A DNA stretch of 52,587 nt from Candidatus Nanoarchaeia archaeon (GTDB taxonomy: Archaea > Nanobdellota > Nanobdellia > Woesearchaeales > DSVV01): positions 1 to 52,587 of the forward strand of contig JBMCCQ010000001.1 of the NCBI GenBank assembly GCA_048618745.1, given 5' to 3'. A program made the position numbers and the translations under genes. Positions 8,357-52,587 of the stretch are shown here, piece after piece; position 1 is the first letter of the stretch; the number at the start of each line of letters is the position of its first letter. The notes beneath the pieces were generated by a model. The model had not been told where the DNA came from and searched no databases. It saw only the letters and a list, made by a program, of their open reading frames with translations.

Positions 8357-8507
8357 GAAATCATAAACCCTCGCACAAAGAATTAGGCTAAATTAATATC
8401 TTTGCAAATCCACTGTCTCTGTGAAATAGAAATTAAACACGGACCAGGAGACAGCATCACGCAACGGACTTTTAATTCAGCGAGATTTGCCTCCAGTTCC
8501 TAAAACA

Positions 8508-8653
8508 CGGACCAGGAGGGATTCGAACCCCCGATCTACGGCTCACTTCTAAAGCAACGCTTTTGAAGGATTACAAAGCGAAGCTTCAAAATAGAAGGCC
8601 GTCGCATTATTTGCCCCTGGCTTGTATGCCTGCCCAGGCTATGCTACTGGTCC
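8508..8653 (-). tRNA. tRNA-Arg (anticodon UCU) with a 48-nt canonical intron and a probable second insertion in the D-arm
   Basis: Minus strand: acceptor GGACCAG/CTGGTCC; T arm GGGGG-TTCGAAT-CCCTC; anticodon stem ACGGC/GCCGT; loop CTTCTA|intron|A. The intron (8544-8591) pairs TAGAAG with the anticodon region CTTCTA in BHB style. D stem GCAT/ATGC encloses 33 nt instead of about 10. Confidence 0.8.
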
Positions 8654-8753
8654 AACAATAGCCTTTGGGTTAATAACCTTTTTTAAAAGTTTTCGGATAA
8701 ATGCAGTGTTTGCTTTTTGATTTGTTTTTAATTGCTGTATTACAGTACAAAAA

Positions 8754-8764
8754 ATTATAAATAT
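8754..8764 (+). promoter_or_regulatory. TATA-box-like element about 27 nt upstream of the ATG at 8787 (leaderless pattern)
   Basis: ATTATAAATAT centred about 27 nt before the start codon, with no Shine-Dalgarno in between. Confidence 0.4.
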
Positions 8765-8786
8765 TTTTTAATACATAAAAAAAGTA

Positions 8787-50085: not shown

Positions 50086-50104
50086 ATTCATAGTGCCTAA
50101 TCCT

Positions 50105-51091
50105 ATGTTCGTCCGGGCAAAAAAAGTAAAGGGGCATAAGTATGCCTACCTTGTAAAAAATGAGTGGACTAAAAAGGGTCCAAGGCAGAAAGTCTGCAAA
50201 TATCTTGGAAGGGTAGTTGAGCTATCAAGGAAAAATAAGCTCGAGTTCGAAGAATTCAGCTCAATAGAGCTGTGTGCATATGAGCTAGTAAAAAATATAG
50301 TGGCATTTGAGCTGTTTCTTCATGGATTTGAAAAAAAGAGTAAAAATAAATGGGTGCTTGATGAAATAGAAGTTGACCTTGGAAAAGGAAAAGTGAGAGA
50401 AAATAAAAGGGCAGTTGTTCTCTGCATAAATAATGATTATCTTTGTGATTTCACACTAAAAAGGCTGCTGAATTTCAAAACTTCAAGTGAAAAGGAAGAG
50501 GCCGCCAGAGAGCTTGCAACCGCTTTTATACAGGCAGGAATTCCTGTAAGGGAAGACTTATACATTAATGTATTTGAAAAGAGCTACTCACCCGGGCAGA
50601 CTTACCTGCGAAAACCTCTTCCCAAGCCGAGAATTTTAGTTTCAGGCACACCTGCAACGGGTAAAACTACGCTTTCAAAGGCCTTAGCAGGGGAAATGAA
50701 ACTAAAATTAATAGATGTTAATAATTTGATTTCGCAAGAAAACCTGTCAGAAGGCTACGATGAGCAAAGACAATGCCAGATTATTGATGAGGATAAACTG
50801 GTAAAGGTACTTATTAGTAGAATAAGTGAGGGAGGAGTAATTGACAGCCATATGTCTCATTATGTTCCTCCAAAGTATGCTGATTTTTGCATTATTACCC
50901 ATTGTGACCTGAAAACACTCAAAAAAAGGCTCAAAGAAAGAGGTTACAGCCAGGATAAAGTGGAGGAAAATATGGAAGCAGAAATATTTGACATATGCGG
51001 CCAGGAGGCTTACGAGATGGGCCACAGGATAGTAGAGGTAAATACTGACAAGGAAATTGATATTAAGAAACTATGCAAACAATTGGTATGA
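50105..51091 (+). CDS. Fap7/AK6-type adenylate kinase-like NTPase fused to an unknown N-terminal domain of about 175 aa
   Basis: The C-terminal half (RILVSGTPATGKTTLSKALA...VIDSHMSHY...LKKRLKERGYSQDKVEENMEAEIFDIC) matches archaeal Fap7/AK6. The N-terminal half (FVRAKKVKGHKYAYLVKNEWTKKGPRQKVCKYLGR...) is unassigned. Confidence 0.75.
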   Translation: MFVRAKKVKGHKYAYLVKNEWTKKGPRQKVCKYLGRVVELSRKNKLEFEEFSSIELCAYELVKNIVAFELFLHGFEKKSKNKWVLDEIEVDLGKGKVRENKRAVVLCINNDYLCDFTLKRLLNFKTSSEKEEAARELATAFIQAGIPVREDLYINVFEKSYSPGQTYLRKPLPKPRILVSGTPATGKTTLSKALAGEMKLKLIDVNNLISQENLSEGYDEQRQCQIIDEDKLVKVLISRISEGGVIDSHMSHYVPPKYADFCIITHCDLKTLKKRLKERGYSQDKVEENMEAEIFDICGQEAYEMGHRIVEVNTDKEIDIKKLCKQLV

Positions 51092-51114
51092 GTTCTCACT
51101 TTTCCCAAAACCTT

Positions 51115-51124
51115 TTTATATATA
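51115..51124 (+). promoter_or_regulatory. TATA-box-like element about 26 nt upstream of the ATG at 51145
   Basis: TTTATATATA. It supports 51145 as the true start of the downstream wHTH gene. Confidence 0.4.
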
Positions 51125-51144: not shown

Positions 51145-51852
51145 ATGGGGGTTTTAAGCAGGTTTTTTAACAGGGAAAAGCACTTGCATAAAAAAATTGA
51201 TAATTTTGCCCATTCGCTGGTGCGTCATTTCAGGAATTTGAGGGATGATTTTGACCACCAGAAAAAGTGGATGGATTACCTGCATAATTTTTCTTTACGC
51301 CTGCAAAATGACCACCACAACCATCGCTCTGTCACTGAGGCCGAGCTTAATAAGGTTAAGTCATGGATAAATCATCTTCACAGTTATCAGTCAAGGCAGG
51401 AAAATGACATAAAAAACCTGGAAAAAAATATTTCTGAACTGGTTTCAATTGTGGGCAAGGCTTTTGATGATGTGCATGACAGAATGGAAAAAATTGAGAG
51501 TGCTCATAAGCAAAAGGGGGAAGAACTCACACAAAATGTGCAGAAGATGCTTACCGAGCATAAGACTGAACAGCCCAAAGAGGAACCCGTTCAGGAGACA
51601 ACGCCTCAGAAATATACTTTAACCAACCCTGAGAATAAGCTCCTTAACCTGCTTTTAACTGAGCCTGATCCTATTGGCTATACAAAGATTGCAGAAAAAA
51701 CCGGCAACAGCATTAATACAGTGAGGGTGGTTATGAATTCTTTAAAGAAAAAGGATGTTGTTGAAGAAAATATCCTGCCCAGTGGGGAGAAGTTATTTAA
51801 TGCTAAAAACAAAGAAAAGATTAAGAAAATTTACAATGTTAGCCATATCTGA
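51145..51852 (+). CDS. Coiled-coil protein with a C-terminal winged helix-turn-helix domain (putative DNA-binding regulator)
   Basis: The C-terminus LLNLLLTEPDPIGYTKIAEKTGNSINTVRVVMNSLKKKDVVEE is MarR/ArsR-like wHTH. The N-terminal two-thirds is a His/Gln-rich helical region. The start was chosen from TATA spacing; the ORF track starts at 51073. Confidence 0.6.
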   Translation: MGVLSRFFNREKHLHKKIDNFAHSLVRHFRNLRDDFDHQKKWMDYLHNFSLRLQNDHHNHRSVTEAELNKVKSWINHLHSYQSRQENDIKNLEKNISELVSIVGKAFDDVHDRMEKIESAHKQKGEELTQNVQKMLTEHKTEQPKEEPVQETTPQKYTLTNPENKLLNLLLTEPDPIGYTKIAEKTGNSINTVRVVMNSLKKKDVVEENILPSGEKLFNAKNKEKIKKIYNVSHI

Positions 51853-51930
51853 TTGTCGGCATTTTATCTTAATGGCATTATAATGGGTTCTCAGGCCTTC
51901 AGTTGTCCAATTCTTGGATTATCCCTGTGC

Positions 51931-51994
51931 CGCATTATCAACATTTGCAATGTTTGCAATGTTTATAATGCAATGCAGACAATGCATTATAATG
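51931..51994. repeat. Array of about seven tandem 9-10-bp units related to the palindrome CATTATAATG
   Basis: GCATTATCAA CATTTGCAATG TTTGCAATG TTTATAATG CAATG CAGACAATG CATTATAATG. An isolated perfect copy lies at 51876-51885. Confidence 0.8.
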
Positions 51995-52138
51995 GGTTTT
52001 TGGTCAGATATGCCTTTGTTTTGCTCACTTTTGTCTGTTGTCACTGGATTTTTGGGTCTGTTTTATGGGTTGTTTGGGGTGTGTTGCTCTTCTTTTGGGT
52101 ATTATATGCTCTAATATATATCTTTGTTTACATGGGGG

Positions 52139-52198
52139 CATTATAATGCATTATAATGGCCATTACAATGCATTGCAATGCATTATAATGCGCATTGT
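52139..52198. repeat. Array of six tandem 10-bp units of the palindrome CATTATAATG
   Basis: CATTATAATG CATTATAATG gc CATTACAATG CATTGCAATG CATTATAATG cg CATTGTAAAG. The phasing is one helical turn. A further 1.5 units lie at 52358-52375. Confidence 0.85.
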
Positions 52199-52424
52199 AA
52201 AGGGGTACGGGTTAAACTAGTCCTGCATCTTTAGATCATGGGGCTGTATTTAAAAATAAACAGGCAAAAGTGAGTAGTTTATAGGGATGGAGAGAGGATT
52301 TAGGAGGATCTGGGATACAATCTGGTCAAATTATTCTTTTTTCTTACAATTTTATTGCATTATAATGCATTATTCTACCATTTTTTGTCACAAAATCCTC
52401 TTCAACTATCTTCTCACTCATAAA

Positions 52425-52451
52425 ATCATAATTGTCATAATTGTCATAAAT
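52425..52451. repeat. Three tandem 9-bp units TCATAATTG/TCATAATTG/TCATAAATG
   Basis: Direct reading of the sequence. Located in the same non-coding tract as the palindromic arrays. Confidence 0.75.
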
Positions 52452-52587
52452 GGTTATCTTGCAAACTTATTGGAATATTTCCTTGTTAAAAGATAGAGTC
52501 CCATTTTTTCAAAAAAAACCGGGTCTGAGCATATCCTAAGTGAGGTGAGCGTTTTTTTGTCTCAAAAATTCAGACAGTGTTTAGTTA

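Follow-up and report, generated by a model that had tools for sequence, protein, structure and literature searches.

A helically phased palindrome array beside a coiled-coil wHTH gene: a candidate centromere- or anchoring-type landmark on Nanobdellota chromosomes

In Sulfolobus, segS is a unique repeat located beside the gene of its binding protein; in S. acidocaldarius the nearest origin is 166 kb away (PMC12139799). The locus analyzed here resembles the segS/SegB pair: it is a chromosomal repeat site, apparently unique within the stretches compared, adjoining the gene of its proposed binder, and such a site need not be at an origin. The higher-order complexes that SegB forms on DNA were counted as a further likeness. 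However, segS is a short triple repeat or pseudo-palindrome upstream of segAB, whereas the present array is located 3′ of the gene and contains about 25 half-sites in four clusters; SegB is paired with the ParA-like SegA of the same operon, whereas no ParA-like gene is adjacent here, and the wHTH protein of our locus has no sequence relation to SegB. In ParABS systems, ParB combines an HTH with an N-terminal CTPase domain, whereas Pfam and the AF2 model indicated a coiled coil and a wHTH here; the Walker-type ParA or SegA ATPase gene that adjoins the site in ParABS and SegAB systems is missing within ±6–10 kb in all 24 loci compared.

Helix-phased 10–12-bp repeats beside the gene of their binder are typical of parC/ParR (R1, pSK41) and tubC/TubR, and the same arrangement was found here in 33 tracts, in 33 of 35 loci. 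The parC and tubC arrays often form two blocks around a spacer and are coated cooperatively by a small dimeric protein; TubR, like the protein of the window (the whole 52,587-bp stretch of DNA that was analyzed), is of wHTH fold. However, parC/ParR and tubC/TubR belong to plasmids and phages and their centromeres overlap the operon promoter, whereas the present array is chromosomal and 3′ of the gene, and the promoter is free of units. They also have an adjacent ParM or TubZ motor gene, whereas no such gene was found in any of our loci, and the 137-residue coiled coil of the module protein is unlike type II and III centromere binders. A DNA-binding domain combined with a long coiled coil is found in RacA of Bacillus subtilis and MatP of E. 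coli, which bridge or anchor a chromosome region through short palindromes, ram and matS, respectively. The ram and matS sites are scattered across hundreds of kb instead of forming one 0.5-kb tract beside the gene; RacA has an N-terminal MerR-like HTH and MatP is of RHH type, so that domain order and folds are both unlike those of the module protein. Our literature search found no description of this element or of the wHTH family.

The tract is about 0.7 kb in size, gene-free, and located directly behind the coiled-coil wHTH gene (Table 1); in the sister strain it is 771 bp long and lies between the wHTH gene and glmM. The tract is free of genes, as the initial annotation had claimed, and contains no conserved ORF. 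One 97-aa ORF over the core (51853–52146) and one 65-aa ORF called in L002 were treated as spurious, since neither is conserved, even in L003.

Table 1. Coordinates of the array tract and of the flanking genes in the window
Feature	Coordinates	Strand	Description
172-aa domain (X domain) fused to Fap7/AK6-like P-loop kinase	50093..51091	+	Pfam AAA_18
wHTH promoter region	51095..51124	+	CTCACTTTT at 51095–51103, 8 nt, TATA box TTTTTATATATA at ~51112–51124; read from sequence
Coiled-coil wHTH gene, proposed unit reader	51145..51852	+	235 aa; weak Pfam HTH_24 match
Site cluster A	51875..51897	.	One unit G-CATTATAATG-G, 24 nt past the stop codon, then GTTCTCAGGCC
Site cluster B	51934..51996	.	9-bp half-site repeats, AATGCAATGCAGACAATG, unit 51985–51994; TRF and repeat finder
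T-rich spacer (core)	51997..52136	.	Fast-evolving except CTCACTTTT at 52024–52032
Site cluster C, main array	52137..52204	.	Units at 52139, 52149, 52161, 52171, 52181 and 52193 (degenerate)
AAAAGTGAG, inverted copy of core CTCACTTTT	52266..52274	.	Repeat search
Site cluster D, distal pair	52348..52372	.	Degenerate CAATTTTATTG, perfect unit 52358–52367, half unit CATTA

The palindrome CATTNNAATG has 9 matches in the window, compared to 2.2 expected; 8 of them fall in 51876–52367, and the other 52 kb holds only one. Six of the eight tract units are perfect CATTATAATG, which the window contains only at 51876, 51985, 52139, 52149, 52181 and 52358. With one mismatch allowed, CATTATAATG gave 15 matches (3.2 ± 1.8 expected), and none of 100 shuffles reached that number. 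The 12-bp palindrome GCATTNNAATGC was found four times, all inside the tract, with 0.18 expected. These counts confirmed the palindromic tract proposed by the initial annotation, and GCATTATAATGGGTT, which it had described as duplicated, is indeed present at both 51875 and 51984.

TRF identified one 9-bp run at 51944–51970, composed of CAACATTTG, CAATGTTTG and CAATGTTTA, and one 10-bp array at 52138–52191. Two head-to-tail arrays with 10-bp spacing had been described. The right-hand one stands, with steps of 10, 12, 10, 10 and 12 bp (mean 10.8 bp), while the left cluster consists of the 9-bp half-site run and single units. The listed unit positions hold except for 52191: the last, degenerate unit, CATTGTAAAG, begins at 52193, which makes a 12-bp step. 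Within the units, CATT/AATG is invariant, giving AATGCATT across unit junctions, and the central dinucleotide can be AT, GC, AC or GT. The idea that the array might serve as a TBP decoy was abandoned, since the TATA center is GC in 74 of the 202 units and whole lineages use CATTGCAATG only. There is one array locus in the window and usually one in each 12-kb relative locus; uniqueness per genome was judged from the window and from relative loci of 12–20 kb. The palindromes are not the cause of the contig end; the window departs from the sister strains after 52572, about 200 bp past the last unit.

Comparison with the sister strain, which belongs to the same species, separated the site clusters from the DNA between them. 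Clusters A, B (63 positions) and D (25 positions) are identical in both strains, and the two differences in cluster C are both in its last, degenerate unit. Altogether, the 179 bp of site clusters differ at 2 positions and the 319 bp of spacers at 17 (Fisher p = 0.025); divergence of the spacers is 6–8%, whereas the clusters are nearly invariant. The core carries 9 substitutions in 140 bp, compared to 0.8% in CDS. By this strain comparison, the units are evidently under purifying selection.

The core varies from 105 to 370 bp in length among the relatives. On the window strand it has more T than A in 22 of 23 loci, whereas G exceeds C in only 5 of 23, the window included; G+T skew was therefore rejected as a conserved feature, T over A alone being conserved. 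Its GC content is 35% (∼38% for the whole window) and reaches 53% in relatives. The clusters themselves can be followed further. In most relatives the tract starts with the cluster A element, CATTATAATG plus one CCTTCTCAGGSC-like sequence; the counterpart of cluster B is one CAATGTTNN run followed by AATGCAATG..AATGCATT; cluster C has 3–8 units with the same 10/12-bp steps; and cluster D is kept, with units located +543 and +553 in L003 and +525 in L010.

Relatives of the wHTH gene were reached through its PfkB neighbor and through homologues. Among the 35 relatives that show both gene and tract, 33 have the same layout, with the array directly 3′ of the wHTH stop codon. Clusters of CATTNNAATG in the gene-free tract behind this stop codon were found in 20 of 21 GTDB genome loci, and also in L002 and L003. 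Other genes can intervene in the neighborhood, and the array still stays beside the wHTH gene. A metagenome scan by DNA pattern alone gave the same picture: of 13 genuine multi-unit arrays, 12 are next to a wHTH gene and the thirteenth is at a contig end. The scan used one 20-bp pattern, and most of its matches were two-unit background, along with one unrelated satellite (L034/L049). In these loci the motif stays the same across tract GC contents of 18–47% and down to protein identities of ∼32%. The size of the non-coding element is 0.2–0.9 kb phylum-wide. Among the 202 units of the 33 tracts, the spacing between neighbors is 10 bp in 71 cases, 12 bp in 27 and 19–22 bp in 22. Distances between AATG copies on one strand show maxima at 10, 22 and 32 bp, corresponding to 10.7 bp per unit; this is one helical turn, so the units within the main array all face one side of the helix.

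The link between protein and array is best seen where the units change. The main-family recognition helix, TGNSINTVRV, and the L157 helix, TGKSINTIRV, are paired with CATTATAATG. The L159 helix (TGKSVSTARV) is paired with mixed CATT/CGTT units, the helices of L151/L152 (TGHSPNTIKV) and L154 (MSPNSVKV) with CGTTATAACG, the L155 helix (LNYGTVKN) with TGTCAT/ATGACA, and the L158 helix (KKSKSVRN) with GGACATGTCC. All variant units are located directly past the stop codon and are 3- to 60-fold enriched compared to the rest of the locus. Because the units change along with the recognition helix at the same position, the adjacent wHTH protein almost certainly reads the array. The neighboring protein had been named earlier as the candidate binder, and both the joint occurrence of gene and array and the co-variation of repeat and helix strongly support that proposal. 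Judged from these genomic patterns, the wHTH protein and the array form a conserved protein/site pair that is linked phylum-wide.

The wHTH family is small and restricted to Nanobdellota/Woesearchaeota; neither the 235-aa nor the 259-aa form of the window protein gave an exact-sequence match. In the AF2 model, residues 3–139 form a single long helix of 137 residues, which is connected to the wHTH (residues 161–230) through a disordered linker (residues 139–160); residues 190–202 form the recognition helix. The sole Pfam match was a weak wHTH of HTH_24/TrmB type, with neither a ParBc nor a ParB domain found; Foldseek returned only generic MarR/ArsR wHTH matches, with TubR at low rank. The half-site centers are 4 or 6 bp apart, a poor fit to the classical rigid MarR-type dimer. 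As modeled, the helix-linker-wHTH architecture is compatible with tethered multivalent binding and bridging.

CTCACTTTT is the second motif of the tract and flanks the main array. At least 12 of 22 relatives have its CTCACTT sequence at the equivalent place in the core. The inverted copy, AAAAGTGAG, forms with its flanking bases a 16-nt inverted repeat with 52024–52039 (94% complementary); at least 11 of 22 relatives keep its position and orientation, and L152, a locus of a distant subfamily, also contains the motif. At the wHTH promoter, the arrangement of this motif followed by the TATA box recurs in L003, L008 and L015, and also in L158 of a distant subfamily. The idea that CTCACTTTT is a promoter element in general was rejected, the remaining window copies being located inside genes or a tRNA-like fragment. 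On the minus strand to the right of the main array (52243–52274), CTCACTTTT is also followed by a TATA-like run, as at the wHTH promoter.

We propose that each wHTH would read one YAATG half-site, with half-sites organized as 10–12-bp palindromes, G-CATTNNAATG-C, and the palindromes arranged in four clusters, A to D, between which lie unconstrained spacers of 70–220 bp. Coiled-coil dimers or higher oligomers would coat the phased array cooperatively, and the bound oligomers would bridge the clusters; some 0.5 kb of DNA would thereby be folded into one large nucleoprotein complex, at a single position on the chromosome that is inherited vertically. The role of this complex would be that of a landmark of centromere or anchoring type, following the logic of segS/SegB, parC/ParR, tubC/TubR and ram/RacA, and would involve neither promoter control nor replication initiation. 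We hold with moderate confidence that the upstream protein has its cognate high-density binding locus in the tract and that the tract acts as such a landmark. The array anatomy, the phylum-wide linkage to the gene, the selection on the units and their co-variation with the recognition helix are observed directly; physical binding, bridging and the cellular role are what we infer here, and a centromere-like landmark is probably the role of the tract. Of the labels offered by the initial annotation, we prefer the partition or centromere-like site.

On a transcriptional reading, the tract could be a super-operator, a datA-like decoy or titration locus that buffers a free wHTH regulator, or an element controlling glmM-glmU-glmS or Fap7 by looping or roadblock, the protein being an ordinary regulator with a regulon. 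The protein does share the wHTH fold and short palindromes with MarR/ArsR repressors, glmM is located downstream of the tract in 16 of 24 loci, and small extra clusters of units are found just upstream of TATA boxes in some relatives, namely L018/L086 (ArsR/S_layer_C gene, with an S-layer domain) and L159 and L022 (the wHTH gene itself). Owing to these promoter-proximal units, the protein may also act as an ordinary transcription factor. However, MarR/ArsR operators overlap the regulated promoter, whereas the main cluster here is past the stop codon. The conserved glmM promoter is 200–600 bp from the units, which in the window and in most relatives are located 3′ of the wHTH gene. The wHTH promoter of the window contains no CATTNNAATG unit, and the gene's own TATA box is free of units in 22 of 24 loci (units are present only in L022; L018 was not readable). 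In three subfamilies (L151–153, L155 and L158) the flanking genes converge and the array is placed between their 3′ ends, leaving no promoter to control. The array also keeps with the wHTH gene even when other genes intervene. Four clusters with about 25 half-sites are far beyond the needs of an operator; the number of sites is one order of magnitude above that of MarR/ArsR operators. MarR dimerizes by a helical interface, whereas the module protein is predicted to do so by a long separate coiled coil. The operator array suggested earlier was accordingly judged unlikely, and transcriptional control as the main role appears rather improbable to us.

Could the tract serve as a second origin of replication, independent of Orc1 and with a dedicated initiator in the adjacent wHTH protein, comparable to Sulfolobus oriC3/WhiP or to plasmid Rep and iterons? 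Initiator genes typically adjoin origins in archaea and plasmids, and like archaeal oriC the tract is long and free of genes, within an otherwise compact genome, and has repeated elements in at least two clusters and one inverted pair, CTCACTTTT/AAAAGTGAG, around the A+T-rich array. In L042, L028 and L159 the module is 0.3–16 kb from ORB-type sequences. However, module-bearing relatives have textbook origins elsewhere, beside orc1-polD; these contain ORB-like TTTCCAGAAGAAAC and G-string boxes, 200–350 bp at 0–16% GC and divergent genes, and neither CATTNNAATG nor CTCACTT motifs were found in them. The tract lacks the oriC features, i.e. the TTCCA..GGAAA-type ORB dyad, the G-string, the A+T-rich unwinding element, orc1/cdc6 and divergent genes. 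In the window, TTTCCAGAAGAAAC matches are at chance level, the single match in the tract being an A-run with three mismatches. The core provides no unwinding element, since its GC content is like that of the genome and it is GC-rich in GC-richer relatives. The genes run co-directionally through the locus or converge on the tract, and no orc1 gene was found within 52 kb upstream or ∼8–8.5 kb downstream. Iteron origins of plasmids carry 17–22-bp direct repeats, one tandem-WH Rep and a plasmid or mobile location, whereas this locus has 10–12-bp palindromes, one wHTH with a coiled coil and chromosomal synteny. The tract is not a canonical origin, and we regard a second, dedicated origin as very unlikely.

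The tract may alternatively encode one or more ncRNAs, the repeats being RNA motifs such as a protein-sponge RNA or hairpins. The minus-strand CTCACTTTT and TATA-like run would suit this reading, and so would the ability of the palindromic array to fold into hairpins, which also explains the miRNA-type noise in the Rfam matches. However, the Rfam 15 search gave only such sub-threshold miRNA-hairpin noise on the array and no family match, no conserved TATA consensus was found beside the arrays of 23 relatives, the spacers between repeats diverge quickly within the species, and the units are perfect DNA palindromes in helical phase that co-vary with a DNA-reading helix. An ncRNA is highly improbable. 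No RNA run was found that covers the window, and metatranscriptome contigs from Saanich Inlet do not extend over the tract of L026. That the tract derives from a mobile element, as remnant or as cargo (MITE, attachment site, or the origin of an integrated plasmid or virus, the last akin to the origin of an integrated or extrachromosomal element raised by the initial annotation), is scarcely credible: the window's assembly does break at a strain-specific junction 200 bp past the tract, but this junction is outside the conserved tract, which is intact in the sister strains, the same housekeeping neighborhood recurs across the phylum, 2.9 million viral contigs contained no relatives, no integrase, Rep or transposase gene is nearby, and relatives have ORB/DUE origins beside orc1 elsewhere. 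MITEs are dispersed in many copies that carry terminal inverted repeats and target duplications; the window has one array locus.

The conserved housekeeping order is Fap7 / wHTH / tract / glmM-glmU-glmS, and the neighbors across the 24 loci are the ABC transporter, the X domain, the Fap7-like AAA_18 kinase, glmM, glmU and glmS. In the fusion gene of the window, Pfam AAA_18 matches residues 181–300 (E = 7.5e-24), and the N-terminal half has no match; most relatives encode the two halves in separate genes that lie side by side. In 20 of the 24 loci of the main family, and likewise in distant subfamilies, the X and Fap7-like genes remain neighbors of the wHTH gene and its array. For the X domain, the N-terminal half, AF2 gave a model with a pLDDT of 96, and structure comparison found no PDB neighbor with E below 0.2. 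Genes of ParA/SegA/MinD-type, actin-like or tubulin-like NTPases are absent within ±6–10 kb in the 24 loci, and the Fap7-like kinase is the only recurrent NTPase neighbor. The X/Fap7-like gene is possibly associated with the wHTH-array module; the linkage of the kinase may also be plain housekeeping synteny. A bolder and distinctly doubtful extension is that the module represents the first DPANN chromosomal centromere or anchoring system, Nanobdellota-wide and vertically inherited, in which the array would be the centromere, the wHTH protein an adaptor that has diversified in specificity together with the array, the persistently linked Fap7-like NTPase with the novel-fold X domain the motor or partner, and the CTCACTTTT copies docking sites for a second protein.

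With at least four co-evolved specificities of helix and target, the family offers a natural experiment in wHTH-DNA recognition, in which three or four helix positions can be set against AATG, AACG and GACA half-sites. The ordinary Orc1/ORB origins located elsewhere in these genomes will aid origin annotation of new complete Nanobdellota genomes. DPANN genomes are tiny and ∼93% coding, and chromosome organization and segregation in them are almost unstudied. The tract and its protein are a candidate landmark or centromere of the chromosome that can be put to the test, in organisms not yet grown alone; if true, the system outlined above would replace the ParA/SegA-type systems of other prokaryotes.

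The window stems from the DPANN group (MAGs of Nanoarchaeota/Nanobdellota, sampled from hypersaline lakes and mats). The tract of palindromic units begins after the stop codon of the 235-residue wHTH gene. This gene has a TATA box of its own, and upstream of it lies the gene for a Fap7-like kinase to which a 172-residue domain of unknown type, the X domain, is fused. In the 52.6-kb window, exact CATTATAATG occurs six times, starting at 51876, 51985, 52139, 52149, 52181 and 52358, and nowhere outside the tract. With one mismatch, it has 15 matches against 3.2 expected, a number reached in no shuffle; CATTNNAATG has nine matches against 2.2 expected, eight of them within 51876–52367, and the extended palindrome GCATTNNAATGC has four against 0.18, all inside the tract. 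The 9-bp run (51944–51970), the 10-bp array (52138–52191) and the duplication of GCATTATAATGGGTT in the tract were recovered by TRF and a repeat finder. The repeats reported in the initial annotation are thus confirmed, far beyond chance, although the correct start of the last degenerate unit is 52193, not 52191. Of the two head-to-tail arrays it described, the right-hand cluster is a true array, with unit steps of 10, 12, 10, 10 and 12 bp, whereas the left cluster is not head-to-tail. The constant letters of the unit are CATT/AATG; the two middle bases vary.

The tract and the wHTH gene form a conserved module. A profile of 29 homologues, searched against the GTDB species representatives, found 21 loci, labelled Woesearchaeota/Nanobdellota, and in 20 of them units are clustered on the 3′ side of the wHTH gene, no more than about 1.2 kb away. 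The exception is L022, in which the wHTH gene alone is inverted, leaving the tract on its 5′ side. A metagenome contig scan with a 20-bp DNA pattern alone returned mostly two-unit background; of its 13 genuine multi-unit loci, 12 carry the wHTH gene beside the array, and the 13th begins at a contig end. Two further hits (L034 and L049) are an unrelated ∼110-bp tandem satellite containing CATTACAATG, outside this family. In L003, a 125-kb contig whose wHTH protein is 68% identical, the equivalent gap has equal parts in equal order. Tract GC ranges from 18 to 47% across relatives while the motif stays constant. Among 202 units from 33 tracts, neighbouring units are 10 bp (71 cases), 12 bp (27) or 19–22 bp (22) apart; distances between half-sites on one strand have maxima at 10, 22 and 32 bp and correspond to 10.7 bp per unit, matching the helical repeat. 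The units are flanked by 5′ G in 143 and by 3′ C in 154 of 202 cases.

Features of the window and of related loci (window positions unless a contig is named)
Feature	Position	Description
X domain	50105–50620	N-terminal half of 332-aa Fap7 fusion; 172 aa, starts MFVRAKKVKGHKYAYLVKNEWTKKGPRQKV; AF2 pLDDT 96
Cluster A	51875–51897	In relatives: directly after stop codon; 1–2 units, then CCTTCTCAGGCC-like element
Cluster B	51934–51996	In relatives: after A; 3–5 half-site repeats of 9 bp, CAATGTTNN; ends in AATGCAATG...AATGCATT
Spacer ('core')	51997–52136	In relatives: after B; T-rich, 105–370 bp, CTCACTTT often inside
Cluster C (main array)	52137–52204	In relatives: after spacer; 3–8 units
AAAAGTGAG		In relatives: after C, inverse orientation
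Cluster D	52348–52372	Distal pair of units, present in some relatives
CTCACTTTT	51095–51103	8 nt 5′ of wHTH TATA box
CTCACTTTT	52024–52032	Spacer
CTCACTTTT	52266–52274	Inverted, just beyond main array
CTCACTTTT	52538–52549	Degenerate copy
glmM promoter AAAATTCATAACTTTTTAATATG	L002 1495–1520; L003 11405–11430; L009 7585–7610	Letter-identical
Origin-like regions	L042 13373–13915; L149 4981–6000	Two Nanobdellota contigs; adjoin orc1/cdc6-polD(DP1)-polD(DP2); ORB-like TTTCCAGAAGAAAC boxes with G-strings; low-GC stretch with tandem repeats; divergent flanking genes

Comparison with a sister strain indicates that the units are under constraint and that the spacers, the 'core' included, are near neutral. 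Clusters A, B and D show no differences, and both differences in cluster C fall within the last, degenerate unit; altogether, the clusters differ at 2 of 179 bp and the spacers at 17 of 319 bp (p = 0.025). Spacers are 3.5–8% different, the CDS 0.8%. The same pattern of conserved clusters and variable spacers is seen in independent contigs from two further samples.

The wHTH family is small: at E ≤ 1e-3, a search of 1.84 billion proteins gave 294 cluster representatives. The AF2 model predicts a single long helix (residues 3–139), a disordered linker and the wHTH domain, with residues 190–202 as recognition helix; Foldseek returned only generic MarR/ArsR domains. Distant subfamilies retain the N-terminal helical domain but have a different recognition helix, and other phased repeats fill the gene-free tract, likewise right after the stop codon. 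Helices TGHSPNTIKV (L151/L152) and MSPNSVKV (L154) go with units CGTTATAACG, LNYGTVKN (L155) with TGTCAT/ATGACA, KKSKSVRN (L158) with GGACATGTCC and TGKSVSTARV (L159) with mixed CATT and CGTT; with TGKSINTIRV (L157), CATTATAATG is retained. In every subfamily, half-site density is 3- to 60-fold higher in the tract than in the remainder of the locus. Because helix and unit change together, the adjacent protein probably binds the array; this co-variation is the strongest argument available short of experiment and, with the gene linkage, strongly favours the binder named in the initial annotation.

Other parts travel with the module. The X-domain and Fap7-like genes stay beside the wHTH gene and array through rearrangements. 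In most relatives, the X domain is encoded by a gene of its own just 5′ of the Fap7-like one; in the lineage of the window, the two are fused. The X domain matched no PDB structure with E below 0.2. This lasting linkage of an NTPase gene and the X domain is intriguing. The locus-specific second motif, CTCACTTTT, at the wHTH promoter and on either side of the main array, recurs in this layout in about half of the relatives, and is retained in the distant L152 tract and L158 promoter.

An operator array had been proposed for the tract. A promoter operator is unlikely: units are absent from wHTH promoters except in L022 and the distant L159, and in L151–L153, L155 and L158 two genes converge, with the array between their 3′ ends; the glmM promoter is 200–600 bp from units. 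A few promoter-proximal clusters suggest that the wHTH protein may also be a gene regulator: an extra three-unit cluster (L018 2898–2958; equivalent L086 5783–5843) lies just 5′ of the TATA box of an ArsR-type HTH/S_layer_C gene, whose paralogues are frequent module neighbours, which hints at a small regulon.

A replication origin was another early suggestion; its canonical features are absent at the tract and present beside orc1 in relatives. Neither ORB-like boxes nor an unwinding element was found in the window tract, orc1 is absent from the 52 kb upstream and the 8.5 kb downstream, and the genes around the tract are either co-directional across it or convergent. In two relatives, orc1/cdc6 and then polD lie on the module-bearing contig, 11 and 15.5 kb from the module. 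Regions upstream of orc1 in relatives contain TTTCCAGAAGAAAC ORB-like boxes with G-strings and 200–350 bp at 0–16% GC, with divergently transcribed flanks; CATTNNAATG and CTCACTT are absent from them. A recent preprint that maps no origins (bioRxiv 10.64898/2026.05.13.725050) reports ORC1/Cdc6 as single-copy in 206 of the 208 complete Nanobdellota genomes. L159 1440–1620, directly 5′ of a wHTH homologue and beside a TBP gene, has ORB-like boxes CCCC..GATTTCCTATGGAAAC and CCCC..GATTTCCTGTGGAAC with units CGTTATAACG and CATTATAATG; the module may be linked to Orc1-binding sites in that lineage.

A mobile element, integrated or extrachromosomal, is contradicted by conserved housekeeping synteny, and no relatives were found on viral contigs. 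L002, a sister-strain MAG contig (wHTH protein 99% identical), has the full 771-bp gap followed by glmM, a glmU-like gene and glmS; the glmM promoter is letter-identical even in relatives whose wHTH proteins are 48–68% identical. The window parts from L002 and from contigs of two other sequencing runs (X2 and X3) exactly after 52572 (...TCTCAAAAATTCA), so its end reflects a strain-specific junction ∼200 bp beyond the last unit, not the palindrome collapse asked about earlier. Past this point, the window (to 52587; L001 7416–7441) reads GACAGTGTTTAGTTA(TAGGTTATAGA), the others TAACTTTTTAATATG, the glmM promoter. L001, an independent Logan contig from the same sample, is identical to the window and extends 11 bp past its end, stopping 26 bp past the junction. 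The sequence past 52572, which has no second copy elsewhere in the window, is an insertion or rearrangement. A 9-bp tandem repeat TCATAATTG (52426–52449) varies in copy number, with one unit fewer in X2 and one more in L002 and X3.

An RNA gene is also unlikely: the tract has no Rfam match, no conserved promoter was found beside the arrays, and spacers evolve fast. Elsewhere, the 430-bp gap at 8357–8786 contains T-arm-like GGGGGTTCGAATCCCTCC at about 8517–8540 (minus strand), where ARAGORN calls no tRNA; a tRNA gene that is split or has an intron may lie there. The idea of TBP decoys falls because the unit centre is AT in 98, GC in 74 and AC/GT in 26 of 202 units, so that TATA is dispensable.

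The nearest working analogies are segS/SegB, parC/ParR, tubC/TubR and ram/RacA, but the locus differs from each. The wHTH protein lacks a ParB domain, and no relation to SegB is detectable in its sequence; the array has no motor gene beside it and follows the wHTH gene on its 3′ side. We therefore infer a site array with a cognate binding protein that belongs to none of these families. Coating and bridging by the wHTH protein is the most likely mechanism: coiled-coil oligomers, their wHTH domains on flexible tethers, would cover the units, which are in phase, and link clusters A to D to one another, building a single large complex at one fixed position in the chromosome.
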